Source: Candidatus Thiodiazotropha sp. (ex Epidulcina cf. delphinae) (GTDB lineage Bacteria; Pseudomonadota; Gammaproteobacteria; Chromatiales; Chromatiaceae). Taken from it: DNA of 64,000 bases. Numbering within the stretch: the first letter of the stretch is position 1; each line of letters starts with the position of its first letter. The position numbers were made by a program, and so were the translations under genes. The notes below the pieces were generated by a model. The model saw only the letters and a list, made by a program, of their open reading frames with translations. It was not told where the DNA came from and ran no database searches. Positions 1-14,780 of the stretch are shown here, in pieces. The DNA is taken from assembly GCA_025656455.1 (NCBI GenBank), contig JAHXHS010000004.1, positions 14,377-78,376 of the forward strand. Direction: 5' to 3'.

Positions 1-149
1 AGCGACTGATAGATTTCGGCGGCTGTCTCAAAGTCTCTGAGGCGTATCGCCGCTTGCGCATCGTCATGGGGGGTTGCCGTTGCCTGAAGCGGTATGGTCA
101 GGCAGATGGCGAGTAATAGAAATAGGATCGGGCAACGGTGTGGGTCCAT
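1..149 (-). CDS. partial CDS (5' end only, continues past window start): hypothetical secreted protein
   Basis: Not in the ORF track. The minus-strand ATG at 149-147 reads MDPHRCPILFLLLAICLTIPLQATATPHDDAQAAIRLRDFETAAEIYQS... and stays open to position 1. The N-terminus is hydrophobic and signal-peptide-like. It lies 13 nt downstream of the stop of the 163-1482 gene. Confidence 0.35.
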   Translation of the reverse strand, partial: MDPHRCPILFLLLAICLTIPLQATATPHDDAQAAIRLRDFETAAEIYQS

Positions 150-162
150 GTTTTGATGTGTT

Positions 163-1482
163 TTAGGCCGAGCCATGTTTTGTTTCCACGCTAATCCCGG
201 TCTCTTTGAGAAAGCCCGTGGGGAGTATGCCGCCGGCACAGATGATTGCTGCATCATTAGGAATTTCAATCTGTTTTCCCTTATTGTCTATGGTGACGGT
301 CTCTTTGGTGAACCCGAGGACATTACTACTGAGAAGCAGGTTGATTTCTCCCGTCTTGGCGGCATTGTCGACCTTTTCCCTGTTTTTCTTCTTGGCCCGG
401 CTGAAGGCGCCGCTTCGGTAGGAGAGGGTAACCGTAGTGCCGGGTTCTGCGGCGATACTGGTGGCGGCCTCCAAGGCGCTGTCGCCACCTCCGACGACCA
501 GGACATGCTGGTTCCGATACTGTTCCGGATCGATCAGACGGTAGGTGATCTTACTTAAATCCTCTCCCGGCACCCCGAGCTTTCGCGGTGTGCCCCGGCG
601 ACCGATGGTGAGCAGCACAGTGCGGGTATGGTAGCGGTCTTTGCTGGTTTTGACCTCATAGCCCCCCTTATCGCTCGGTGTTATCTTCTCCACCCGTTCG
701 TGATAATTAATCTGGACGCCGGTTTTCTTTTCTATCTGCTGCCAGAATTGCAGCAGCTTCTCCTTGGTAGTTTCGGTGAACTTCATCTCTCCCGCAAGGG
801 GCAGTTTGACCGGGGCCGTCATCACCAGTTTGCCCCTGGGAAACTGGAACACGGTGCCGCCCAGGGACTCCTGCTCAATGGTCTTGTAGCGGATTTTCTT
901 TTCCAAGGCCCGCAGTGAGGCGCAGAAGCCGGCTGGGCCGGCGCCGACGATCAGCACATCCAGGGGGGCGGCTTGCTTGTCTTTGACCACTTCGCTGATA
1001 TAGTCCAATGCCTTATAGCCTTGCTCGATGGCATTCCTGATCAGCCCCATGCCGCCAAGCTCGCCGGCGATGAAGATCCCCGGCATGGTGGTTTCGAAAT
1101 TGGGTTCCAGCAGCGGAATGTCCACGCCCCGCTTCTCCGTGCCGAAGACCAGGGTGATGGCATCGAACGGGCAGGCGGTTTTACAGGCCCCGTGGCCGAT
1201 ACAGTTGGTGGGCGCGATCAGTTCCGCCTTGTTGTCGATCAGCCCGAGAACAGGGTGATTCAGCTGCTCGGGACAGGCCCTGACGCAGGTCCCACACCCC
1301 ATGCATTTTGCCGGATCGATAATGGGATGCAGGGATGCCGGTTCGGTCAGGCCGGCTTCGAACTCTTCCGTCTTGAGGGCGAGATTCCGCCTGCTTTTCC
1401 GTTTTCTATGCAGGAGATATATTATCCACACTAATGCGATGGGTATTAGGTAGATGAGATAGAGGTCTAAGGTGTACTGCAT
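163..1482 (-). CDS. membrane-anchored 2x[4Fe-4S] ferredoxin-domain / FAD- and NAD(P)-binding (thioredoxin-reductase-like) oxidoreductase
   Basis: N-terminal TM helix (LYLIYLIPIALVWIIYLL). Two Cys clusters, CMGCGTCVRACP and CIGHGACKTACP. Dinucleotide motifs VLIVGAGPAG and VLVVGGGDSALEAA. Confidence 0.8.
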   Translation of the reverse strand: MQYTLDLYLIYLIPIALVWIIYLLHRKRKSRRNLALKTEEFEAGLTEPASLHPIIDPAKCMGCGTCVRACPEQLNHPVLGLIDNKAELIAPTNCIGHGACKTACPFDAITLVFGTEKRGVDIPLLEPNFETTMPGIFIAGELGGMGLIRNAIEQGYKALDYISEVVKDKQAAPLDVLIVGAGPAGFCASLRALEKKIRYKTIEQESLGGTVFQFPRGKLVMTAPVKLPLAGEMKFTETTKEKLLQFWQQIEKKTGVQINYHERVEKITPSDKGGYEVKTSKDRYHTRTVLLTIGRRGTPRKLGVPGEDLSKITYRLIDPEQYRNQHVLVVGGGDSALEAATSIAAEPGTTVTLSYRSGAFSRAKKKNREKVDNAAKTGEINLLLSSNVLGFTKETVTIDNKGKQIEIPNDAAIICAGGILPTGFLKETGISVETKHGSA

Positions 1483-1742
1483 TTCCTGATCTATGTTTAG
1501 ATAGTGCCGCGCGCATTCTGTGGGATATTCAGCCTAAATTCTACACAGGCATTAAAAACCTGACCCCCACGCCGATAACTTAATCATCCTAGAGTGTGAT
1601 AATTTGTGAAGCCCTTCAAAGATGGGAAAATTATCCCAACATAATCTATAAATACAAGTAGAATAGAACCTGGTTGCAATGCTCGGTCGCAACGGAAAAA
1701 GACTTAAAGTAATTGATTTTATAGCAGATTATAGGTGAGTAG

Positions 1743-2663
1743 ATGGAAACAGCCGCACTATCGCCCAATGTAGATCGTGTCGACAGTACATTATTGGAGA
1801 GCCTCCTCTCCATTTGGAGACGCTGGGCGGGTGTTTTGGCCACGACCGGGTTCACCCTGTTTTCGCTGCTGTTGCTCTATATGGGCTGGCTCAACCGCAG
1901 CGAGGCGGTTTGGACGGCTGAAGCTGGCTGGGGATACTGGCTCGGGTTCGTCGGCGGCAGCCTGATGCTGCTGCTGCTGCTCTATCCCATGCGCAAACGC
2001 ATCCGTGGCATGTCAAACTGGTTGACCGTCAAATTCTGGTTTCGACTGCATATGGTCTTCGGGGTGCTCGGGCCGGCGCTGATCATGATGCACTCAAGCT
2101 ACCATCTTGGTTCACTGAACGGCCGTGTCGCCCTGTTCAGTATGTTGATCGTAGCCATCAGCGGTTTGATCGGACGCTACTTCTACACCCGCATCCACTA
2201 TGGTCTGTATGGCAGAAAGGCCACCTTCGCTTCCCTGCATGCCGACTCGGAGGCGCTGAAGAAGCGGCTCAGTCGCCTGTTCGAACTGCAGCCCAAGTCC
2301 AAGGAGATGCTCAAGCAGTATGAACAGCGGATTATGCAGACGCCGAAAGGCATGGTCGCCAGCGCCAGGCATTGGTTCACCATGCGTCTCTTATCCGCCA
2401 AGCTCTATCCTACGGTCATGCGTTCCCTGAATACGAAACTCTTGGCCGTGGGTTACACCAAGGGCTGGGACAGGGCAAAAGTGCGCCGCAACCAGCTGCG
2501 CATCCGACAAATGTTATTGACTCACCGGAGTACGGTTCGGCAGATTCTCGAACTCCATTTTTACGAGAGACTCTTCGCAATTTGGCATGTGCTGCATATG
2601 CCGCTGTTCATCATGATGGTGATCACCGGTTTTGTGCATGTCTATGCCGTGCATGCCTACTGA
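1743..2663 (+). CDS. polytopic inner-membrane protein with His-rich TM helices (candidate haem-b/quinone-linked subunit); hypothetical
   Basis: ATG is preceded by AGGTGAG. There are about 5 predicted TM helices. Histidines cluster inside two of them (FRLHMVFGVLGPALIMMHSSYH; FAIWHVLHMPLFIMMVITGFVHVYAVHAY). It sits directly upstream of the cytochrome genes on the same strand. Confidence 0.6.
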   Translation: METAALSPNVDRVDSTLLESLLSIWRRWAGVLATTGFTLFSLLLLYMGWLNRSEAVWTAEAGWGYWLGFVGGSLMLLLLLYPMRKRIRGMSNWLTVKFWFRLHMVFGVLGPALIMMHSSYHLGSLNGRVALFSMLIVAISGLIGRYFYTRIHYGLYGRKATFASLHADSEALKKRLSRLFELQPKSKEMLKQYEQRIMQTPKGMVASARHWFTMRLLSAKLYPTVMRSLNTKLLAVGYTKGWDRAKVRRNQLRIRQMLLTHRSTVRQILELHFYERLFAIWHVLHMPLFIMMVITGFVHVYAVHAY

Positions 2664-2691
2664 TTTCCTAGCAAGCGTTTCTTTGTTTGCG

Positions 2692-4266
2692 ATGATTCGA
2701 AATGGCTGCCTTGTCTTCTATCTGTTCCTGCTGATGTTTTGTGCGACTTCTCCTGTATTCGCGGGCAAGCTCGATCTGCTGCTGATGCCCGGGCCGGTGA
2801 TCGCCGGTCATGCCGAGTTCGAGGAGAAATGCGAAAGCTGTCATGAGACCTTGAAGAAGGCCGATCAGGTGCGGCGATGCCTCTCCTGTCACGATCACAG
2901 CGATGTGGCTGAGGATGTTGAAAAGGGTAAGGGTTTTCACGGCAGGCTGGACAAGGACCAGGTGGCAGAATGCAAGCGTTGTCACACCGAGCACAAGGGG
3001 CGGGATAAGGATATCGTGAATTTCGATACGGAGTCTTTCGATCACAGCCTGACGGATTTCGAATTAAAGGGTGCGCATCGGCCTGCTGCCTGCCGACTCT
3101 GCCACACTCAGGAACTGAAGAAATACAGTCAAGCCCCCTCTGTATGCTTCGATTGTCACGAGGCCGACGACTCTCACCAGGGAAAACTCGGTGAGGAGTG
3201 CGATAAGTGCCACAGTGAAAAGAGCTGGCAGGAGCAGAAATTCGATCACGATGTCGATACGGAATACAAGCTGATCGGCAAGCACAAGGAACTGGACTGT
3301 AAGCTGTGTCACGCTGGCGAGCACTATAAAAACACCCCGAAAGAGTGTATCGGCTGCCATCTGATCAACGATGCCCACAATGGCCGGTACGGTAAGGAGT
3401 GCGAGAAATGCCATGCCAGCGAGGAGTGGAAGGAGCTGGTCTTCGATCATGACAAGGATACTGAATTCACCTTGAAGGGCAGGCACAAGGATGTTCCGTG
3501 CGATACCTGTCATAGCAAGGGTCCGTATGAGGAAAAGCCCTCTAAGATCTGTTTCTCATGCCACGAGAAGGACGATGAACACAAAGGCAGAAACGGTGAG
3601 AAATGCGAGGAGTGTCACCGTGCCGAGGATTGGAAAAAGGTGAAATTCGATCATGAGAAGGACGCCAAGTTTGCACTGAAGGGCAAGCACAGGGATCTGG
3701 TATGCCATGCCTGCCATCGCACTGTGGCAATGGATGACCTCAAGGACGCCGAGTGCTTTACCTGTCATCGCGCGATCGATGTCCATAAAGGCGAGCAAGG
3801 CGAGAACTGCAGCTATTGCCATAACGAAAACAGCTGGAACGAGAAGGTCTTTTTCGAACACGATATCACCCGTTTTCCCCTGATCGGCATTCATAGCGTC
3901 ACATCCTGTGAATCCTGTCATCTGAACGCGGAGTATCAACAAACCGATATCGCCTGTCTCTCCTGCCACGGTTCTGAAGATATCCACGAAGGCCGGATGG
4001 GTGAAAACTGCGGCAATTGCCACAATCCGAATGCCTGGTTGCTGTGGACCTTCGATCACGATACCCAGACCGATTTCGCCCTGGAAGGCAGACACAATGA
4101 AATCTTCTGCCACGCCTGCCACCGGGCTGATTTGACTGAGCACAAACAATCGCCGAATCACTGCTACGGCTGCCATCGAGGGGATGATATTCACCGCGGG
4201 GGCTTCGGGCGCCATTGCGATCGCTGCCACAGCAGCGAAACGTTCGAAGAACCGGAGATTCGCTAG
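2692..4266 (+). CDS. periplasmic multihaem cytochrome c, 21 CXXCH motifs (7 trihaem c7/c3-like modules)
   Basis: My manual count gives 21 CXXCH motifs. A module of about 66 aa recurs: FDH..D..F.L.G.H...C..CH ... C..CH..D.H.G..G..C..CH....W....FDH. The start was chosen at M21 of the ORF because MIRNGCLVFYLFLLMFCATSPVFA|GK is a clean signal peptide. The ORF opens at 2632. Confidence 0.9.
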   Translation: MIRNGCLVFYLFLLMFCATSPVFAGKLDLLLMPGPVIAGHAEFEEKCESCHETLKKADQVRRCLSCHDHSDVAEDVEKGKGFHGRLDKDQVAECKRCHTEHKGRDKDIVNFDTESFDHSLTDFELKGAHRPAACRLCHTQELKKYSQAPSVCFDCHEADDSHQGKLGEECDKCHSEKSWQEQKFDHDVDTEYKLIGKHKELDCKLCHAGEHYKNTPKECIGCHLINDAHNGRYGKECEKCHASEEWKELVFDHDKDTEFTLKGRHKDVPCDTCHSKGPYEEKPSKICFSCHEKDDEHKGRNGEKCEECHRAEDWKKVKFDHEKDAKFALKGKHRDLVCHACHRTVAMDDLKDAECFTCHRAIDVHKGEQGENCSYCHNENSWNEKVFFEHDITRFPLIGIHSVTSCESCHLNAEYQQTDIACLSCHGSEDIHEGRMGENCGNCHNPNAWLLWTFDHDTQTDFALEGRHNEIFCHACHRADLTEHKQSPNHCYGCHRGDDIHRGGFGRHCDRCHSSETFEEPEIR

Positions 4267-4291
4267 TGTGTCCTCTAACTACCGATTCAAC

Positions 4292-7200
4292 ATGGATAGC
4301 CATATCATGAATACCATTCAAACCAACACCATACGACTCAGCCAGGCCGCAAGGTATTATCCCTGGCTGGTGCTGTTGTTCGGATTATTCATTGGTGGTG
4401 TATCGAGTAATCCTTTGCTGGCGGCCAGCGGCAAATTCGACCATTTTTCCACCGGTTTTCCCTTGACCGGCGAGCATCGTATTGTCGAGTGCGACAGATG
4501 TCATGACAAAGGCCAGTTCGTCGGGACTCCCGTGTTGTGCGATGGCTGTCATAACGATACCGATGCGGGCGGTAAATCGATGGGCCATATCCGCAGTGAC
4601 GATCAGTGCGACGATTGTCATACCACGGTGGGCTGGCATGTGGCTCGCTTCGACCATGGGACAATCTCGGGTGACTGTTTTGCATGCCATAACGGCAGCG
4701 CCGCGCAGGGCAAGAACAGCGAGCACATTCACTCGTCGAACACTTGTGAGTTCTGCCACTCCACATTCAGTTGGGGACGGGTCAGCCATGTGGATCATGC
4801 GGAGGTTACGGGGACTTGCGAGAGTTGTCACAACGGAGGCATTGCAGCGGGCAAACATCCCAGCCATATTCTCACAAACGCCCCATGCGAAACCTGCCAT
4901 ATCACCAACAGTTGGCTGTTGGTCTATTTCGATCATGGCGACGTCGCCGCCGGCACCTGCGAGACCTGCCATAACGGGGTTAGCGCAACCGGCAAATCGG
5001 CTACCCATATCCAGACCGCGGAACCCTGCGACCTCTGTCATACCACCAATGGCTGGAGGGTGGATAATTTCTCCCATGCCGGCGTGCGGGATGATTGTGA
5101 AAGCTGTCATGACGGGATCAGTGCAGCCGGTAAAAATGTCGGTCATCTCGCTACTAATGAGCCCTGCGAACTCTGCCATACCTCGACCAACTCCTGGTTG
5201 GTCGTCACATTCGTGCACGGCGAGGAGGTCTTCGGTCAATGCTCCACTTGCCATAATGGTGTGATCCAGCCAGGCAAACACGACGCCCATGTCGCCACCA
5301 CCGCTGAGTGCGATTCCTGCCATATCTCCACCGAGTCATGGGAATCGGTCGGTTTCGATCACAGTGAGGTCGTAGCGGGCACCTGTGCGACCTGCCATGA
5401 CGGGGTTCAGGCGCCGGGTAAACATGACACCCATATCACTACCAACGAATCCTGCGATGTCTGTCATGCCACAACGGCCAACTGGCATGTGATCAGTTTC
5501 GACCACCAAAACATTCAGACAACGGGTGTCTGCTCATCCTGCCATGACGGCGTGCAGGCAACCGGCAAGCATGGGCAGCATATACAGACGGATGCCCAGT
5601 GCGATACCTGCCACGACTCCACCAACAATTGGAGCAGCACCAGCTTCGATCACAGCGGCGTGGAGACGGTCGGCGTCTGCTCCAGCTGCCACAACGGCAC
5701 GGCTGCGACCGGTATGCATGCCACCCATATCGAGACCAACGTCCAGTGCGATACCTGCCATAACTCCACCAACTCCTGGTCCAATATCAGCTTCGACCAT
5801 GGTTTGATCCAAAGCGCCGGCGTCTGCGCAACCTGCCATAACGGCATCAGGGCCACGGGTAAGCATGCCACCCATCTCCAGACCAATAGCGAGTGCGATA
5901 CCTGCCATACGGTTACGGCCTGGAACATATCGGACTTCTCGCACGAAGGCGTTTCCGGCAGTTGCGAGTCCTGCCACGACGGCATCGTGGCGACCGGTAA
6001 GCATGGGGATCATATTGCAACCACCGCTTCCTGTGACGCCTGTCATTCGACAACGGACTGGTCGCTTACCGGGTTTACCCATGAGGGCGTTTCAGGCGCC
6101 TGCGAGTCCTGCCATAACGGCAGCATTGCCACCGGCAAGCACGGGGACCACATCCCGACAAACGCCAGCTGCGATAATTGTCACAATACCGGCGGCTGGG
6201 CCATCGGCACCTTCAATCATGAGGGGGTGACGAACAGTTGCCAGTCATGCCACGATGGGGTCCGGGCAACCGGGATGCATGACGCCCATGTGGCGACTTC
6301 CGCCGCTTGTGAAGCCTGTCATACCTCCACCAGCAACTGGTTGGAACTGACTTTTGATCACTCGGTCGTGACCGGCACCTGTGAAAGCTGTCATGACGGC
6401 GTCACCGCCACGGGAAAATCGGCTGACCATGTTCAGACCAGCGCACCCTGCGATAACTGCCATATTTCGAATGTCACTTGGACAAGTGTCAGATTCGATC
6501 ATAGCGATATCACGACTGGCTGCGAATCCTGCCACAACAATGTGGATGCGATCGGCAAGTCGGATAATCACATTGTGACCAGCGAACCCTGTGAAGCCTG
6601 CCACACTACGGTTACCTGGAGCACCGGCACCTTCGATCACGCGGGCGTGTCCGGCGCCTGTTCGAGCTGCCACGACGGCGTCATAGCCACGGGTAAAACG
6701 ATAACCCATATTCCCACTAATGCGCAGTGTGACGCCTGCCATACATCGACGATCAGCTGGACGGATATCAATTTCAACCATGACAATATAGCGGTAGCGG
6801 GTGTTTGCTCAAGCTGTCACGATGGAACCGGGGCTACGGGTAAACACCCACAGCATATTCAGACGACGGCTGAATGCGACACCTGCCATCTCTCCACGCT
6901 GAATTGGACCGACACCAGCTTTGACCACAGCGGCGTCACCACGGCAGGGGTATGCGATTCATGTCATGACGGCGCGACCGCCACCGGTAAACATGCCGAA
7001 CATATCACCACCACCGAACAGTGTGATATCTGTCATACCTCCCTGACATCCTGGCTCAGAGTCAATTTCGACCATGGCTCTGTGCAGACTGCCGGTATCT
7101 GTTCCAGCTGCCATAACGGCATCAGGGCCACGGGCAAACATGCCGATCATCTCCAGACCCATGCGGAATGCGATGCCTGTCATACTGTCAACGGGTGGAA

Positions 7201-9274
7201 TATCTCGAACTTCTCCCATGAAGGCGTGACCGGCGCTTGCGAATCCTGCCACAATGGCGTGATCGCAACCGGTAAGGACGCAACCCACATCCAGACCACC
7301 TCATCCTGTGATGTTTGTCATACCACCGCGGATTGGTCGCTGGCGCAATTTGATCATCAGGGGGTCGTATCCGGCAGTTGCGAGTCCTGCCACAATGGCG
7401 ACATCGCCACCGGTAAACTTCCGTCGCATGTTCTGACTAATGCCTCCTGCGATACTTGCCACGATACCAACAGTTGGAGCGTAACCAACTTCAACCACGA
7501 GGGTGTGACCGCAAACTGTCACGCCTGCCACGACGGGGTTCGGGCCACTGGCAAGCACTCCACCCATGTGGCCACCACGGCATCCTGTGAGGTGTGTCAT
7601 ACCTCTACCAGCAACTGGCAGCAGATCAGATTCGATCACTCAGTGGTGAGCGGCGCCTGTGAGAGCTGTCATGATGGCGTAACCGCCACGGGTAAATCGG
7701 CTGATCATGTGCAGACCAATGCGCCTTGCGATAACTGCCATATCTCCAATACCACCTGGACGAATATCAGATTCGATCACGCCGACATTACGACGGGCTG
7801 TGAATCCTGCCATAACAATGTGGATGCGATCGGTAAACCGGCAAATCATATTCCGACCAGCGAACCCTGCGAAAATTGCCATACCACGGTGACCTGGAGC
7901 ACCGGCAGGTTTGACCATATCGGTGTGACCGGCACCTGCTCGAGTTGTCACAACGGCACGATAGCCACGGGTAAACACACAGGCCATATCGCTACCAACG
8001 GACAATGCGACAGTTGCCATACGTCGACCGTCAACTGGACATCGATCCGCTTTGACCACAGCACCGTAACCGGCACTTGCCAGAGTTGCCATAACGGCAC
8101 CACGGCGACGGGTAAATCCGCCAGTCATGTGGCGACCAACGCGGCCTGTGATATCTGCCATACGTCCCAGACCACCTGGACGGCGGTCAACTTCGATCAC
8201 TCGGTTGCGATAGGCGTCTGCTCAAGCTGTCACAACGGCGCCACGGCGACCGGCAAGCCGGGTAATCATGTCCAGACCAATTCCGAGTGTGATGTATGCC
8301 ATACCTCGCAAACCACCTGGACGGCGGTGCAGTTCGATCACAGCAACGCGGCAGGCAACTGTTCCTCCTGTCACGATGGGATCACCGCGACGGGCAAGGA
8401 CCCCGGCCATATCCCAACCACCGCCCAGTGCGATGACTGCCATCTCTCCACTTCGAACTGGAGCAATGTCCGATTCAGCCATGTCAATGTGGCCGGCACC
8501 TGCTCCAGTTGCCATAACGGCGTGACGGCGGAGGGCAAGCATGCCAACCACATCCTGACATTGGCTCAGTGCGATACCTGCCATGTCTCCACGAGCGACT
8601 GGGGAAACGTTCAGTTCAACCATCAAGGCATCACCACCGGCTGTTCGAGTTGCCACAACGGCTCACTGGCGACGGGTAAGCCGGGCAGCCACATACCGAC
8701 CACCGGGGAGTGCAATACCTGCCACACCTCGACGAGCAATTGGTTAAGCGTGAACTTTACCCATACCAATGTGGCCGGCACCTGCTCCAGTTGCCATAAC
8801 GGCACTTTTGCAGAGGGTATGCCGGGCGGGCATGTGCAGACCTCAGCCCAATGCGATACTTGCCATACCTCCACCTCCAACTGGTCCAGTGTCACGTTTG
8901 ATCATTCCGGTGCGACGGGCAACTGCAATTCCTGTCATAACGGCACCACGGCGACCGGCATGCCGCAGGGGCATTTCGTCACCACCGAACAGTGCGATAG
9001 CTGCCATACCACCAGCGGCTGGTTGCCGGTGACCAACTATCGGCACGTTTCCGGCGACTATCCGGGTGATCACCGGGTTAGTCTGAGATGCAACGACTGT
9101 CATACCAGTAACAGTGAGTCGGTGCCATGGCCTTTCGCGGCGTACGCCAGGACTTGCGCGGGTTGTCATGCCAATGACTACGATTCGGGAGAGAGTGATC
9201 ACAACGGCCTGAGTAATGACCGGAATTGCGGAGCCAGTGGATGCCACAGGGTTAGCGACCGTAATTGGGATTGA
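4292..9274 (+). CDS. giant repeat-built multihaem cytochrome c (about 67 CXXCH; doubled-CXXCH modules)
   Basis: My manual count gives 67 canonical CXXCH motifs plus one C-terminal CX4CH (CGASGCH). About 33 modules of roughly 47 aa follow the pattern C.SCH[DN]G..A.GK...H..T...C..CH.....W....F[DN]H. The N-terminus (YYPWLVLLFGLFIGGVSSNPLLA|AS) looks like a signal peptide. The start is uncertain: GTG 4268 (GGAG 10 nt upstream), ATG 4292 or ATG 4307. Confidence 0.9.
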   Translation: MDSHIMNTIQTNTIRLSQAARYYPWLVLLFGLFIGGVSSNPLLAASGKFDHFSTGFPLTGEHRIVECDRCHDKGQFVGTPVLCDGCHNDTDAGGKSMGHIRSDDQCDDCHTTVGWHVARFDHGTISGDCFACHNGSAAQGKNSEHIHSSNTCEFCHSTFSWGRVSHVDHAEVTGTCESCHNGGIAAGKHPSHILTNAPCETCHITNSWLLVYFDHGDVAAGTCETCHNGVSATGKSATHIQTAEPCDLCHTTNGWRVDNFSHAGVRDDCESCHDGISAAGKNVGHLATNEPCELCHTSTNSWLVVTFVHGEEVFGQCSTCHNGVIQPGKHDAHVATTAECDSCHISTESWESVGFDHSEVVAGTCATCHDGVQAPGKHDTHITTNESCDVCHATTANWHVISFDHQNIQTTGVCSSCHDGVQATGKHGQHIQTDAQCDTCHDSTNNWSSTSFDHSGVETVGVCSSCHNGTAATGMHATHIETNVQCDTCHNSTNSWSNISFDHGLIQSAGVCATCHNGIRATGKHATHLQTNSECDTCHTVTAWNISDFSHEGVSGSCESCHDGIVATGKHGDHIATTASCDACHSTTDWSLTGFTHEGVSGACESCHNGSIATGKHGDHIPTNASCDNCHNTGGWAIGTFNHEGVTNSCQSCHDGVRATGMHDAHVATSAACEACHTSTSNWLELTFDHSVVTGTCESCHDGVTATGKSADHVQTSAPCDNCHISNVTWTSVRFDHSDITTGCESCHNNVDAIGKSDNHIVTSEPCEACHTTVTWSTGTFDHAGVSGACSSCHDGVIATGKTITHIPTNAQCDACHTSTISWTDINFNHDNIAVAGVCSSCHDGTGATGKHPQHIQTTAECDTCHLSTLNWTDTSFDHSGVTTAGVCDSCHDGATATGKHAEHITTTEQCDICHTSLTSWLRVNFDHGSVQTAGICSSCHNGIRATGKHADHLQTHAECDACHTVNGWNISNFSHEGVTGACESCHNGVIATGKDATHIQTTSSCDVCHTTADWSLAQFDHQGVVSGSCESCHNGDIATGKLPSHVLTNASCDTCHDTNSWSVTNFNHEGVTANCHACHDGVRATGKHSTHVATTASCEVCHTSTSNWQQIRFDHSVVSGACESCHDGVTATGKSADHVQTNAPCDNCHISNTTWTNIRFDHADITTGCESCHNNVDAIGKPANHIPTSEPCENCHTTVTWSTGRFDHIGVTGTCSSCHNGTIATGKHTGHIATNGQCDSCHTSTVNWTSIRFDHSTVTGTCQSCHNGTTATGKSASHVATNAACDICHTSQTTWTAVNFDHSVAIGVCSSCHNGATATGKPGNHVQTNSECDVCHTSQTTWTAVQFDHSNAAGNCSSCHDGITATGKDPGHIPTTAQCDDCHLSTSNWSNVRFSHVNVAGTCSSCHNGVTAEGKHANHILTLAQCDTCHVSTSDWGNVQFNHQGITTGCSSCHNGSLATGKPGSHIPTTGECNTCHTSTSNWLSVNFTHTNVAGTCSSCHNGTFAEGMPGGHVQTSAQCDTCHTSTSNWSSVTFDHSGATGNCNSCHNGTTATGMPQGHFVTTEQCDSCHTTSGWLPVTNYRHVSGDYPGDHRVSLRCNDCHTSNSESVPWPFAAYARTCAGCHANDYDSGESDHNGLSNDRNCGASGCHRVSDRNWD
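5504..8053 (+). repeat. intragenic tandem super-repeat, 2 x 1275 bp (2 x 425 aa = 2 x 9 dihaem modules)
   Basis: HQNIQTTGVCSSCHDGVQATGK... starts at 5504 and HDNIAVAGVCSSCHDGTGATGK... starts at 6779. The two blocks stay colinear module by module over 18 haem sites each. Cognate modules are much more alike than neighbouring modules. Confidence 0.8.
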
Positions 9275-9385
9275 TCGCGGCAGGGGTGGCATGGTCTGGC
9301 CGGCGCCCTTTGCCGGGCAGTGAACGGCGACAAAGAACCTGGCGGAATCCTGGGTCTGAATCATTGATTTCCACGACCCTTGTTG

Positions 9386-9656
9386 TTAGGGCCTGTTAAC
9401 ACTAATTTGATAGCCACTGTTGTGCCTGAAAAAGCGCCAATCAAGGCACGAGGAGCGTAGTTTGGTTGTTCCAAATAAGCGACGAGTAACGCCGAGTGGC
9501 GCTTTTTCAGGCGCAACCCGAAGGGCCAAGGCCCTGTTTTCGCCCAGCGGCGTTATCAGTCGCTTATGTAGACCCGGCTACACGGCGCTCCTTCTGCCTT
9601 GCTGGACAAAAACAGGGTCTTGGCAGTGGCTATCAAATTAGTGTTAACAGGCCCTA
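9386..9656 (+). mobile_element. MITE-like structured repeat, family A, copy 1 (271 bp)
   Basis: 33-bp terminal inverted repeats TAGGGCCTGTTAACACTAATTTGATAGCCACTG at 9386-9418 and 9624-9656. Two long internal hairpins are joined by the hinge CGCAACCCGAAGGGCC. A homologous copy lies in the opposite orientation at 55518-55786. Confidence 0.75.
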
Positions 9657-9809
9657 GGTGGTTTTTCATAAACATTTTCGATTGACTTGTTCATGGACAG
9701 CGGGTGCCGGCGCCCACGGAGGGGTTGGCGCTATGCTTTCTCGGGTTGCATGCAACAGAATCAGGAAATGACATAAGCTAAATAAACAATACTGATCAGG
9801 TAATACAGA

Positions 9810-12347
9810 GTGCAGGTCAATATTCAATCTAGGATCCACCCTCGGCTGCTGATGCTGATGCTGATGCTGGTTTCATGGCAGGCGAGTGCGGCGACGGCGA
9901 CCCGGGTGCTTGATCGCATCGAAATAGAGACCCAGGGCGATGCCAATGTCATCTCCGTCTATTTCAACGTGCCAGTGCGCTATGTCTCCCACCTGATAAA
10001 TGAAGCCAACAGTGAAGTCGGCGTGCAACTGAAAATCGGTCAGACCACTGAGGAGGCGATCGGCAAGACCGGCGATGAGGAGCTCGGCGACCTGGTGGAA
10101 AGCGATCAACTGACCTGGAACCCGACAGCCGCCGTGCCGCTGGATAAAGTGGCGTTTCAGGGGAACAATATCGGCACATCCACCTTATTGGTCTCTTTCG
10201 CAACACCGGTTAAGGATTTCACGATTCGCCAGGGACGTGATTTTTATGTCATGGAGTTCATCCTGCCGCAGGCGCCGTTAGGGGGGGATCAAGCAGACTC
10301 GATAGGGCGAGCCATGGATATCGCTGTCCCGGAGGCTCGTGCGCCCCTCAGTTTCAAGTCGCTGCCGCTGGTGATTTATGTCATCAACCTCAGCGCGGAT
10401 TCCCAACCCATCGATTTCTCACAGATTGCCCCGGTGCCGGTGGGCGACAATCAATTGCTCTACACAACCAAGTCGACGGTGGACGATCATACTTGGCACC
10501 GTCTGCGTTTGGGGTTCTTTCGAACCAAGGAGGAGGCCAGGCAGCAGTTGAAGGCGGTGAAAAACTTCTATCCGGATGCCTGGGTCGATACAGCGGATAT
10601 CGCTGAGCGTCGCCAGGCCTTTTTCGACCGGGGCATAGAACAGGAGTTTGACGTTCAACCCCTGCATGAGCCTGAAATATTGGATGTGGATCCCCGTTTG
10701 ACCGACATGATGGAGATGATCCGGCGCACGATCACGGCAGGCGACTACGCCAAGGCGGTCCGGCTCCTCGAAGCCCTGCTGGAAGAGCCGGATAATATCT
10801 ACTCCCAGGAGGCCTTGGAGCTGCTTGGGTTGTCCCGTGAAAGAAATGGCCAGATCGCCCACGCCAAGGGAGAGTACCGCCTCTATCTGGAGAAGTATCC
10901 CGAGGGAGAGGATGCTGATCGTGTCTGGCAACGCCTGCTCGGACTGGAGACCGCGCCGCAGCGGCCCCGGGAACCCCTACGCAAGAAGCAGGAGGGTGAA
11001 GCGGGAGAGGAGGGTCCCGCGGCGGTGTGGGAGACCTATGGCAGCTTTTCCCAGAACTACCGCAGGGATACCATCGACAGTCCCTTTGTGGAGGATGAAG
11101 ACAGTGTCTCCCGTTCCGAGATAGAGAGCTTCATCGACCTGAATACCCGGCGCAAGAGTGAGGATTTCGACATGCGCCTGAAACTTACCGGCAGTTATGT
11201 CTACGACTTGCTGGATGATGGCGATGGCAACGATTCGACGCTCAGCGACGCCTATCTGGACGTGGAGCATCTGCAGACCCGCGCCAGCGCCCGTTTTGGG
11301 CGTCAGCGGTTACGCTCCAGCGGTATCCTGAATCGTTTCGACGGTCTTGTGCTGGGCTATGAAGTAACCCCGGATATCGATATCAGGGTCAGCGCTGGCC
11401 TGCCAGTGGAGCGCTCCCGTGACACCTTCCTGCACAAACATAAGCAATTTGCCGGTATTAGCGGCGATATAGCGAGTATTTTCGAGAACTGGGATCTCAG
11501 CCTGTTTCTGGTTGAGCAGCGGGTCGACGATCTGGTCGACAGGCGGGCGTTGGGTGGTGAGGTCCGCTACTTCGATCCTGAGAAATCCCTGTTCGGTTTG
11601 CTCGACTACGACATCTTTCACCAGCAGCTCGGCATTTTTATGGTGCAGGGAAACTGGCGGTTACAGGACGAAACCCGTCTGTATATGAATTTCGATTATC
11701 GGAACAGCCCGATTTTGAGCACTTCCAATGCGCTGAGCGGACAGCTTGACCCGGTCACCCAGTTGTCGATCGAGTCGATCGAGGAGCTGCAGCGTTTCTA
11801 CACTGATGAGGAGATCTACGATCTGGCGCTGGATCGTACGGCAGAGACCACCACCCTGTCGTTCGGCGCAACGCGGCCGTTTTCGGAGACGCTGCAGTTG
11901 AGCGGCGACATTACCGTGAGTAAAACAGGTGAAACACCAGCCTCGGGTGGCGTGCTGGCCACGGAAGCGACCGACAACGAGTTCTTCTACACCTTCCAGG
12001 TCATTAAGAACGATCTGTTGAAGCAGGGTGATATCGGCATCTTTAGTCTGCGCTACTCCGATTCCAATACCTCGGATACCTTCAGAATCGGGATCAGCAG
12101 TCGCTATCCCATCACCAATGTCTGGCGAATCAATCCCCGACTGGATCTCTCCTACCGTCAAAACGACGACAATGACGGGACCCGTTTGACCGTCAGTCCG
12201 TTTATTCGGATGGATTACCGGTTCCGCAAGAACTTTACCTTTGAATTGGAGGGGGGATTGAACTGGTTCGAGGAAGATGACGGTATGGATGAAGTGACCA
12301 ACTTTACCGACTATTTCATCTTTGCCGGCTATCGCTGGGATTTCTGA
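9810..12347 (+). CDS. secreted TPR-containing protein with C-terminal outer-membrane beta-barrel-like domain
   Basis: GTG start with a signal peptide (RLLMLMLMLVSWQASA|AT). A SPOR-like segment (WHRLRLGFFRTKEEARQQLKAVKNFYPDAWV) and a TPR-like segment (GDYAKAVRLLEALL...GEYRLYLEKYPEGEDA) follow. The C-terminal ~430 aa show alternating beta-strand patterns and end in ...FIFAGYRWDF, the terminal aromatic residue typical of OMPs. Confidence 0.7.
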   Translation: MQVNIQSRIHPRLLMLMLMLVSWQASAATATRVLDRIEIETQGDANVISVYFNVPVRYVSHLINEANSEVGVQLKIGQTTEEAIGKTGDEELGDLVESDQLTWNPTAAVPLDKVAFQGNNIGTSTLLVSFATPVKDFTIRQGRDFYVMEFILPQAPLGGDQADSIGRAMDIAVPEARAPLSFKSLPLVIYVINLSADSQPIDFSQIAPVPVGDNQLLYTTKSTVDDHTWHRLRLGFFRTKEEARQQLKAVKNFYPDAWVDTADIAERRQAFFDRGIEQEFDVQPLHEPEILDVDPRLTDMMEMIRRTITAGDYAKAVRLLEALLEEPDNIYSQEALELLGLSRERNGQIAHAKGEYRLYLEKYPEGEDADRVWQRLLGLETAPQRPREPLRKKQEGEAGEEGPAAVWETYGSFSQNYRRDTIDSPFVEDEDSVSRSEIESFIDLNTRRKSEDFDMRLKLTGSYVYDLLDDGDGNDSTLSDAYLDVEHLQTRASARFGRQRLRSSGILNRFDGLVLGYEVTPDIDIRVSAGLPVERSRDTFLHKHKQFAGISGDIASIFENWDLSLFLVEQRVDDLVDRRALGGEVRYFDPEKSLFGLLDYDIFHQQLGIFMVQGNWRLQDETRLYMNFDYRNSPILSTSNALSGQLDPVTQLSIESIEELQRFYTDEEIYDLALDRTAETTTLSFGATRPFSETLQLSGDITVSKTGETPASGGVLATEATDNEFFYTFQVIKNDLLKQGDIGIFSLRYSDSNTSDTFRIGISSRYPITNVWRINPRLDLSYRQNDDNDGTRLTVSPFIRMDYRFRKNFTFELEGGLNWFEEDDGMDEVTNFTDYFIFAGYRWDF

Positions 12348-12822: not shown

Positions 12823-13197
12823 TTGAACCAGCTAATAGCCATTGCGTCGGGTGGCGCTGCCGGAGCACTGTTCCGTTTTTGGGTAGCCAATGGTGTGTAT
12901 GGTCTGTTGGGTCGTGGATTCCCCTATGGCACCCTGGCCGTCAATGTCCTGGGGTCGCTGGCGATGGGGTTCCTGTATGTGCTGTTATTGGAGCGCACCA
13001 CGGTTTCACCGGAGCTGCGCGGCGCCTTGCTGATCGGGTTTCTCGGCGCCTTTACCACCTTTTCCACCTTCTCGATAGAGACACTCAATTTGATCGAACA
13101 GGCAGAGTTGCTCAAGGCCGGATTGAATATCCTGCTCAGCGTGAGCGCTTGTGTATTGGCCTGCTGGTTCGGTCTGGTGCTTGGGAGGCAGTTATGA
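12823..13197 (+). CDS. crcB: fluoride ion channel CrcB/FluC
   Basis: 124 aa with 4 TM helices. Family-typical motifs are GGAAGALFRF, FPYGTLAVNVLGS and GFLGAFTTFSTFS. TTG start. Confidence 0.9.
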   Translation: MNQLIAIASGGAAGALFRFWVANGVYGLLGRGFPYGTLAVNVLGSLAMGFLYVLLLERTTVSPELRGALLIGFLGAFTTFSTFSIETLNLIEQAELLKAGLNILLSVSACVLACWFGLVLGRQL

Positions 13198-13505
13198 GAC
13201 AGACGGAAGTGACCCTGGTGCGGATCTACTTGACCGAAGGCGATCATCAACTGCGCAAGCTGCTCGATTTTTTGCACCGTGACGAGCAGGTCAGAGGCGT
13301 GACGGCATTCCGCGGTATCGCCGGTTTCGGTCGTTCCGGCAAGGCCCATGAGGCGTCGTTGCTGGATATCTCCATGGATCTTCCCCTGGTGATCGAGTTC
13401 TTCGATCAGCCCGAACGGGTGGAGAAGGTGTTGCACGATTTGAATCAATGGGTAGAACCGGGCCATGTGGTGAGCTGGTCCGCACACGTCAATATGGGTG
13501 AATGA
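13194..13505 (+). CDS. DUF190 domain protein (crcB-associated)
   Basis: MRQTEVTLVRIYLTEGDH...GVTAFRGIAGFGRSGK. The ATG at 13194 overlaps the crcB stop (ATGA). The longer ORF from 12879 was rejected as out-of-frame overlap with crcB. Confidence 0.8.
   Translation: MRQTEVTLVRIYLTEGDHQLRKLLDFLHRDEQVRGVTAFRGIAGFGRSGKAHEASLLDISMDLPLVIEFFDQPERVEKVLHDLNQWVEPGHVVSWSAHVNMGE

Positions 13506-14780
<1,275 letters not shown>

Follow-up and report, generated by a model that had tools for sequence, protein, structure and literature searches.

A PCC3 gene cluster of a lucinid-clam symbiont, its conserved flavoprotein and ankyrin partners, and a possible NAD(P)H-linked route for electrons across the envelope

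Which electron-transfer system is encoded by a run of genes for extremely haem-rich proteins in a sulfur-oxidising symbiont of lucinid clams, and in which direction would its electrons travel? The genes lie at one end of a 64,000-nt stretch (the window) of contig JAHXHS010000004.1, which belongs to a metagenome-assembled genome (MAG) of Candidatus Thiodiazotropha sp. We found that they form a member of the PCC3 clusters defined by He et al. (2017, Front Microbiol 8:1584; PMC5566968), and that two further genes, for an FeS-flavoprotein and a secreted Sel1/ankyrin protein, are conserved partners of the set. We read the six-gene module as an outward conduit, in which NAD(P)H would be the donor and the acceptor would lie outside the cell; it would be a bacterial counterpart of NOX/FRE enzymes, split and fitted with a haem wire, and we give this reading a probability of roughly 0.6. 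The features of the locus are the following.

1–176, minus strand: 5' end (~58 codons) of a gene for a secreted Sel1/ankyrin protein, read from its translation; the remainder lies outside the window
163–1482, minus strand: membrane-anchored FeS-flavoprotein (Fer4 and Pyr_redox_3/Pyr_redox_2 domains, N-terminal transmembrane helix)
1483–1742, no strand: divergent intergenic region of 260 bp, presumed from its position to be a bidirectional promoter region
1743–2663, plus strand: PCC3 inner-membrane protein (IMP) with five transmembrane helices (TM), predicted to bind two haems b (motifs as in PMC5566968)
2692–4266, plus strand: secreted 21-haem cytochrome c, the PCC3 'periplasmic' multihaem cytochrome (MHC) (CXXCH count, Pfam)
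4292–9274, plus strand: secreted 67-haem cytochrome c with one additional CX4CH, the PCC3 'extracellular' MHC (CXXCH count, Pfam)
9387–9656, no strand: insertion of 270 bp resembling a miniature inverted-repeat transposable element (MITE), with perfect 33-nt terminal inverted repeats
9810–12347, plus strand: secreted outer-membrane protein with SPOR, TPR and beta-barrel parts, the PCC3 'porin' (AlphaFold2 model, Foldseek, Pfam)

The list of open reading frames (ORFs) places the flavoprotein, IMP, cytochrome and barrel genes exactly where a preliminary description of the locus had put them, the starts of the two cytochrome genes being uncertain by a few codons (alternatives 2632/2692 and 4184/4292). 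That description had also recognised a membrane-anchored 2x[4Fe-4S]/FAD/NAD(P) oxidoreductase, a polytopic membrane protein with histidines inside its TM helices, cytochromes with 21 and about 67 CXXCH motifs, a secreted TPR protein ending in what looked like an outer-membrane barrel, and a 535-bp spacer containing a MITE. All of this was borne out by the domain, topology, motif and fold analyses given below, although the SPOR domain had been missed. The sixth gene, which runs from position 176 on the minus strand and lies mostly off the window, is our addition to the original five. The IMP is identical to a protein in the MAG of Candidatus Thiodiazotropha sp. (ex Dulcina madagascariensis), contig JAHXHP010000048.

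By definition, PCC3 combines a barrel protein, an MHC termed 'extracellular', another, termed 'periplasmic', with a median of 21 haems and an IMP of ~300 aa (PMC5566968). The IMP has five TM, of which TM3 and TM5 bear WX3HX13H and TM4 bears SGXXG; the 'extracellular' MHC has a median of 34 haems within a reported range of 10–85 (63 in Amphritea atlantica, 85 in Agromonas oligotrophica), and the cytochromes are repetitive, rich in T, S, A and G, and use 22–39 aa per haem (PMC5566968). We found each of these traits in the window. A barrel gene accompanies two genes for very large MHCs and one for a ~300-aa IMP, and the same set is present in the 80 loci that we compared. The IMP has five hydrophobic segments, both WX3HX13H motifs and SGXXG. 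Seven units of ~67 aa carry the 21 CXXCH of the first cytochrome, as in the Riftia symbiont, whose periplasmic cytochrome consists of seven 66-aa repeats according to the supplement of PMC5566968, where tubeworm endosymbionts are listed as PCC3 carriers. The second has 67 CXXCH at 24.8 aa per haem in ~32 repeats and is likewise rich in T, S, G and A. Orthology to a cluster that those authors named PCC3 is apparent from Endoriftia persephone (L030, a short contig), where the IMP is 52% and the adjacent cytochrome 57% identical, while the loci of the Lamellibrachia and Escarpia symbionts hold the complete set, orthologous to the window cluster. As far as sequence can define it, the cluster is therefore a PCC3 member. 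The earlier view of a distinct, probably uncharacterised module gives way to a feature-for-feature match with a published cluster already found in tubeworm symbionts, and the ~88 haems in two proteins, which had seemed exceptional, are not so, as PCC3 members with 63 and 85 haems were already recorded.

The architecture of the cytochromes is strikingly regular. In the 524-aa first protein, the 21 CXXCH motifs are spaced by 16–18/18/33 aa, giving seven c7-type trihaem units of ~67 aa each; in the 1660-aa second protein, which has one CX4CH besides its 67 CXXCH, a spacing of 23–26 aa defines ~32 tandem dihaem units of 46–49 aa, and so strict a periodicity excludes chance. The composition of the larger protein (T 13.1%, S 10.4%, G 9.2%, A 7.7%) is accompanied by two extra conserved His per dihaem unit, which would be enough for bis-His ligation of every haem. 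The 21-haem protein has few Met and is therefore probably also all bis-His. Pfam searches returned Cytochrome_C7, Cytochrom_c3_2 and Paired_CXXCH_1, with Cytochrome_C7 at 3e-22 for the 21-haem protein, and the 67-haem protein matches TIGR04257 ('nanowire_3heme') at 6e-22; PDB sequence searches gave no significant relative of either cytochrome among solved structures. We considered whether the 67-haem gene could be an assembly artefact and rejected this, since its repeats are 60–75% identical in DNA and 65–68 haems recur in 19 Thiodiazotropha loci. The gene also bears an old higher-order duplication of 1278 nt.

How constant the module is was assessed in a scan of one genome per species, which yielded at least 548 loci with IMP relatives; the 80 closest were analysed. 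Exactly 21 CXXCH motifs are found in the first cytochrome of 69 of the 80 loci. The second cytochrome varies from 9 to 68 motifs over the whole sample: 65–68 haems in the 19 Thiodiazotropha loci nearest to the window, 41–61 in three more distant ones and 9–57 in other taxa. The oxidoreductase is present in all 65 loci with at least 4 kb of upstream sequence and the Sel1/ankyrin protein in 62 of these 65. Among the 55 loci that reach past the cytochromes, the barrel gene follows them directly in 54; the single exception (L075) arises from an overlapping homologous ORF, dropped by the filter. The genes thus do co-occur in related genomes. Apart from Thiodiazotropha and the tubeworm symbionts (Endoriftia, Lamellibrachia, Escarpia), the hosts include Thiohalomonadaceae, Methylococcaceae, Acidiferrobacterales, Sphingomonadales, Emcibacter and Rhodospirillales, as well as Nitrospirales, Nitrospinaceae, a deltaproteobacterium and an Opitutaceae MAG. 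All six genes were also found in three further, more divergent metagenome loci, in one of which ccmABCDEF comes next.

The barrel gene deserves particular attention, as the preliminary description had cautioned that only proximity and co-orientation tied it to the cytochromes. Its 845-aa product has a signal peptide, a SPOR domain and a weak TPR match in Pfam. In the AlphaFold2 model (predicted local distance difference test, pLDDT, 79 overall and mostly >90 in the barrel) a beta-sandwich (residues 34–153) is followed by SPOR (190–273), TPR (295–381) and a barrel of ~22 strands (407–844), which is interrupted by a helical insert (638–675); the C-terminus reads YRWDF. Foldseek returned outer-membrane barrels only, namely the FimD and PapC ushers, AlgE, Occ porins and PelBC. 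The presence of AlgE and PelBC among these matches, the weak TPR and YbgF/BamD-like matches and the MITE in the spacer would suit a barrel from some unrelated system, Tol-Pal-like or for polysaccharide export, that is a neighbour by chance. Yet, the structural likeness is generic to barrels (TM-scores ≤0.51), the genes downstream in the window are DUF190 and serS, and the 54/55 synteny spans Gamma- and Alphaproteobacteria, Deltaproteobacteria, Nitrospirales and Nitrospinaceae. This synteny across phyla establishes a barrel–cytochrome linkage beyond mere proximity, overturns the earlier caution and effectively refutes the idea of a chance neighbour, to which we assign next to no probability.

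The length of the cytochrome–barrel spacer in the window is explained by the MITE-like insertion of 270 bp. The element is bounded by inverted termini at 9387–9419 and 9624–9656, contains internal hairpins and occurs as a single copy in the window. It is absent from the matching spacer of four other Thiodiazotropha genomes, and the spacers of relatives measure 150–190 bp. A scan for promoter and terminator consensus sequences gave counts at chance level and was uninformative on co-transcription across the spacer.

In turn, topology analysis of the divergently transcribed flavoprotein gave a single TM helix (residues 7–25) followed by the basic stretch HRKRKSRR, which places the catalytic part in the cytoplasm. 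A 2x[4Fe-4S]-type ferredoxin domain (Fer4) precedes Pyr_redox_3/Pyr_redox_2 matches in Pfam. The first FeS motif is CxxCxxCxxxCP; in the second, C94-x2-H97-x2-C100-x3-C104-P (window 1171–1203, minus strand), His replaces the usual Cys. His97 is kept in 67 of 67 homologues and also in Emticicia (CVGHGAC), which suggests, by analogy with the electron exit sites of hydrogenases, that the second cluster may be a His-ligated [4Fe-4S] or [3Fe-4S] centre. Among solved structures, the flavin domain is nearest to YpdA/Bdr and to ferredoxin-NADP reductases of the TrxR type, and the protein stays far below the family cut-offs of TIGR04018 (156 bits vs 339.9) and TIGR01292 (70 vs 343). CxxC is absent from the translation, C187 being the only Cys beyond the FeS motifs; therefore a disulfide reductase is ruled out, and from its sequence the protein is an NAD(P)H-FAD-FeS electron-transfer protein. 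As a side observation, the motif PNFETTMPGIFIAGELGG at residues 127–144 (window 1051–1104, minus strand) can be aligned with YpdA's C-terminal FAD motif (7a76 residues 281–298) and here precedes the GxGxxG Rossmann start, as if the flavin domain were circularly permuted.

The start of the ankyrin gene overlaps the oxidoreductase stop by 14 nt, and the two genes are translationally coupled. On the longer contig JAHXHP010000048 (L001 6380–8434) the full product is a secreted protein of 684 aa with Sel1 and many ankyrin repeats (Pfam Ank_2 2e-84, Sel1 1e-18). It is probably a periplasmic scaffold or chaperone. In the metaproteome of the Riftia symbiont, two secreted ankyrin proteins were detected and read as host-interaction effectors (PMC6918071). 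We observed that the PCC3-linked Sel1/ankyrin protein is conserved in free-living bacteria too, and one of the two Riftia-symbiont proteins may be this accessory of the redox module. For studies of symbiosis, this suggests that among the ankyrin proteins secreted by chemosynthetic symbionts at least one may serve a redox module and not the manipulation of the host.

The protein next to the flavoprotein gene on the other strand, the IMP, comprises 306 aa with five hydrophobic segments and 12 His, seven of which (H103, H117, H152, H282, H285, H299 and H304) are invariant in 30 homologues. The WX3HX13H motifs fall on TM3 (W99, H103, H117) and TM5 (W281, H285, H299) and the SGXXG motif on TM4 (S140-G-x-x-G144); all these residues are invariant in the 30 sequences except W99, which lies outside the ≥90%-conserved columns. 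Basic loops at 81–97 and 141–276 are assigned to the cytoplasm by topology analysis, giving an N-in, C-out orientation; the cytoplasmic side includes a basic helical insert of 136 aa, which is also long and helical in the AlphaFold2 model (pLDDT 83). H103 and H285 are near the cytoplasmic ends of TM3 and TM5 and H117 and H299 near the periplasmic ends, and each HX13H pair spans the membrane. We therefore predict a di-haem b protein from its motifs. A lenient Pfam scan of the homologues gave faint matches to DUF4405 (12/30, best E 0.073) and PepSY_TM. The family is large, with 2004 clusters at 50% identity (E≤1e-10). Its long representatives (449–687 aa) were examined as candidate fusions of IMP and oxidoreductase and rejected, their N-terminal extensions being low-complexity, TPR or SPOR-like. 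One sub-family (P0250–P0303) has such extensions of 150–400 aa and ends in AVHMY.

Taken in order, the predicted locations run from the cytoplasmic face through the inner membrane and periplasm to the outer membrane, a sequence proposed earlier and upheld here by topology and fold predictions; as a conduit it is plausible and agrees with hypotheses already in print. Solved multihaem wires extend 0.8–1 nm per haem. In the mechanism that we favour, the membrane-tethered flavoprotein would trade electrons with cytoplasmic NAD(P)H by means of its FAD and two FeS clusters. The IMP would move them over the membrane on two bis-His b-haems, from H103/H285 on the cytoplasmic side to H117/H299 on the periplasmic side. 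The 21-haem chain of seven c7-like units could then span the periplasm (~17–21 nm), and the 67-haem chain, ~50–65 nm long if linear, would be threaded through or anchored at the peptidoglycan-tethered ~22-strand barrel and reach outward, with the Sel1/ankyrin protein acting as a periplasmic assembly or scaffold factor. We infer the cofactor loading and the contacts between the proteins, as we do the exposure of the large cytochrome outside the cell, the direction of flow and the physiological role. By analogy, the pairing of IMP and flavoprotein points to a connection of NAD(P)H with the conduit that bypasses quinone, split but otherwise NOX/FRE-like.

Outward flow is favoured because export of cytoplasmic electrons runs with the membrane potential, because the arrangement parallels NOX/FRE, and because PCC3 is not induced by Fe(II) in Sideroxydans lithotrophicus ES-1, where growth on Fe(II) lowers the expression of both PCC3 clusters and proteomes show them weakly. 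The last observation also weighs against a role as Fe(II) oxidase. An outward conduit might serve as a redox valve or electron sink when acceptors are limiting, mobilise Fe(III)/Mn(IV) by reduction, or produce superoxide outside the cell.

Published accounts of PCC3 comprise four genes and link the IMP to the quinone pool. They let electrons flow inward, from extracellular Fe(II)/Mn(II) over the cytochromes to the IMP as quinone reductase, and the flavoprotein and ankyrin protein would then be accessory or unrelated. Oxidisers of Fe(II) and Mn(II) do carry PCC3, and in its motifs the IMP is similar to quinone-active cytochromes b (PMC5566968); for iron-oxidising cells of Sideroxydans CL21, the literature also reports up-regulation of the gene for the inner-membrane part of PCC3 copy 2. 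However, this model has to accommodate a flavoprotein that is present in 65/65 loci and adjoins the IMP even in Bacteroidota, the ES-1 response to Fe(II), and the fact that most PCC3 hosts are not known from the literature as metal oxidisers. We regard it as unlikely, though as a contender to be taken seriously.

The same wiring could also run in reverse. Donors of low potential, outside the cell or in the periplasm, would feed the haem wire; they might be sulfide minerals, cytochromes reduced by H2, a partner cell or a cathode. The IMP and flavoprotein would then reduce NAD(P)+ directly for CO2 fixation, much as the Hmc/Tmc complexes of sulfate reducers bring periplasmic electrons inward. The hosts are mostly autotrophic sulfur oxidisers, which otherwise need reverse electron transport, and all-bis-His haems, as the His counts would allow here, usually have low potentials. 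The 21-haem protein weakly matches the 16-haem HmcA family, but at 30 bits this is far under the 400-bit cut-off of NF045713. Furthermore, inward electrons would oppose the membrane potential, and the module has no energy-coupling subunit, which makes this route quite improbable in our estimate.

Several observations have to be set against the outward NAD(P)H conduit, some of which concern the membrane protein at its centre. The IMP has no Pfam match (E≤0.01) or NCBIfam family and no PDB relative in Foldseek or profile searches, NOX, STEAP, MsrQ and cytochrome b561 included (Foldseek gave nothing at E<0.2 with the model). Its haem b binding is predicted from motifs, as is, for lack of a detectable relative in fold or sequence, the analogy with ferric-reductase domains. 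Fusions of IMP and oxidoreductase were not found among 150 representatives of the family. The sample consists mostly of MAGs, and the type betaproteobacterial PCC3 clusters, those of S. lithotrophicus ES-1 (Slit_0867–0870 and Slit_1446–1449) and of Leptothrix cholodnii SP-6, lie outside it. For a sulfur-oxidising autotroph, export of NAD(P)H electrons is without obvious benefit. PCC3 is still called 'functionally unverified' in the literature nine years after its description. As for the outer membrane, the MtrB barrel has 26 strands and the 22-strand barrel here is narrower; neither cytochrome has a lipobox or recognised outer-membrane export signal, and no such signal in the sequence places the 67-haem protein beyond the periplasm.

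The missing export signals would equally suit cytochromes that remain periplasmic as an electron store, capacitor or redox buffer, a role that has been proposed in the literature, with a SPOR/TPR barrel that anchors or assembles them and conducts nothing; the helical insert inside the ~22-strand barrel could then plug its lumen. Against such a store, we estimate from ~0.8–1 nm per haem that a linear 67-haem chain far exceeds the width of the periplasm, and the barrel gene is strictly conserved directly behind a cytochrome that is itself variable. We give this arrangement a slender chance only.

Beyond the outward conduit, we put forward more tentatively a stronger claim for PCC3 as a whole, which might be a quinone-independent, NAD(P)H-driven trans-envelope reductase and no iron oxidase, with a haem wire of ~70–90 nm supplied by the FeS-flavoprotein and a di-haem b protein, as in a split counterpart of eukaryotic NOX/FRE. 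The 'eukaryote-like' ankyrin protein would be a periplasmic assembly factor and no host effector. If this were true, intracellular symbionts such as Thiodiazotropha and Endoriftia would use Fe(III)/Mn(IV) as acceptors when free-living and oxygen or host-side acceptors in the bacteriocyte. A flavoprotein as conserved as the cytochromes in any case points away from a quinone-linked iron oxidase and toward an NAD(P)H-linked reductase or redox valve, and such a model would fit the down-regulation of PCC3 on Fe(II) in the one organism examined. PCC3 is widespread and includes some of the most haem-rich proteins known; lucinid symbionts gain a possible capacity for extracellular electron transfer, and the flavoprotein link alters which experiment on PCC3 comes first.

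Emticicia oligotrophica (Bacteroidota) may be of use for such work, as it is a culturable carrier of the module and usable for genetics. Its plasmid pEMTOL02 (NC_018749; L084 8683–21267), the sole plasmid match, holds a very divergent module in which an IMP homologue with 25% identity lies 4 nt before an oxidoreductase with 46% identity and the same CxxHxxC motif. These are followed by genes for 23-haem and 40-haem cytochromes, a 538-aa candidate barrel protein and a GW-domain protein, and ccsA lies upstream. The plasmid locus has no ankyrin gene, and the barrel candidate shows no detectable similarity to the outer-membrane protein of the window. This copy points to horizontal mobility of the module.

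Two other loci illustrate further fates and contexts of these genes. In a marine-sediment metagenome (L085 16060–20775), ccmABCDEF lies immediately downstream of the module, which fits a very high demand for haem attachment. At L086 5162–14664 the module has decayed: a DDE_3 transposase gene separates the oxidoreductase gene from the ankyrin gene, the cytochrome genes survive as 3–6-haem fragments and the barrel gene is split.

With regard to its surroundings in Thiodiazotropha, the block has rarA as its neighbour at one end and DUF190/serS at the other end. Together with an ORF for a 128-aa lipoprotein-like product, the module sits between ftsK-lolA-rarA and DUF190/serS (L001 1244–5533; window 12879–14780). 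Since ftsK-lolA-rarA-serS is contiguous in E. coli, the module may be an insertion into this conserved block. The remaining window holds housekeeping genes, and no further cytochrome or cytochrome-maturation genes were found there. A candidate paralogous module at its far end (58–62 kb) was rejected, as the 433-aa and 675-aa ORFs proved FadA- and FadB-like. At 20713–24646, co-directional genes for a thermostable-haemolysin-like protein, an AMP-binding enzyme, a Haem_oxygenas_2-type iron enzyme and a short-chain dehydrogenase resemble a small biosynthetic cluster, with no relation to the PCC3 module.

How, then, does the module compare with known systems? With MtrCAB, MtoAB and PioAB it shares the logic of a periplasmic MHC, an outer-membrane barrel and an outward-facing cytochrome. 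It differs from them in having no decahaem unit and in a barrel of ~22 strands with SPOR/TPR domains. The inner-membrane partner of MtrCAB is the tetrahaem CymA, in place of which a b-type IMP with five TM is found here. The preliminary statement that no part resembles known conduits was too strong: the 67-haem protein reaches the cut-off of the DmsE/MtrA family TIGR03508 (195.5 vs 192.2 bits), though by a score summed over 13 stretches of a repeat protein. There is no match of the OmcA/MtrC type (TIGR03507, 30.9 vs 209.3 bits; PF22113, 66.5 bits with no single stretch passing). The 21-haem protein does not match TIGR03508, and PDB sequence searches with either cytochrome gave no MtrA or MtrC.

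The likeness to NOX, FRE and STEAP enzymes lies in two TM helices that each bear an invariant His pair with a distance of 14 residues (H103/H117 and H285/H299), in the cytoplasmic FAD/NAD(P)H module and in the predicted route by which electrons of cytoplasmic NAD(P)H would reach an acceptor outside; the resemblance of the IMP motifs to NOX/FRE was already noted by He et al. (PMC5566968). In contrast to those enzymes, the IMP has five TM and not six, without a match to PF01794 or to their fold, and a separate TrxR/YpdA-type flavoprotein with two FeS clusters takes the place of a fused FNR-type domain. In the Hmc/Tmc complexes of Desulfovibrio, too, a large periplasmic MHC is connected with an FeS protein of the cytoplasm via a cytochrome b in the membrane; yet, the window module has no HdrD-like CCG protein, and Hmc has no outer-membrane component. 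Like the c7 polymers of the Geobacter GSU1996 family ('nanowire' trihaem), the 21-haem protein strings together c7-type trihaem units, seven of them instead of four, and it is embedded in a conserved module with IMP and barrel.

The closest comparison is with published PCC3 clusters themselves, which were described in 26 Gallionellaceae genomes and modelled there as a long linear conduit (PMC9900912). The 67–68 haems of the large cytochrome are within the reported 10–85, near the top, and the lucinid symbionts are a new clade of hosts; in the indexed literature no paper ties Thiodiazotropha to multihaem cytochromes or PCC3. 'PCC3' and 'ankyrin' are nowhere combined there in this sense, 'ankyrin' is absent from the main text of Zhou et al. 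(2022), and in He et al. (2017) 'FAD' and 'pyridine nucleotide' are absent from the main text and 'oxidoreductase' from the supplements (PMC5566968). The tight conservation of the flavoprotein, reaching as far as Bacteroidota, thus appears to be an unreported feature. Whereas the papers give four genes linked to quinone, the FeS-flavoprotein and the Sel1/ankyrin protein are conserved partners here, and this work adds a six-gene definition of PCC3 and its link to an NAD(P)H-type flavoprotein.

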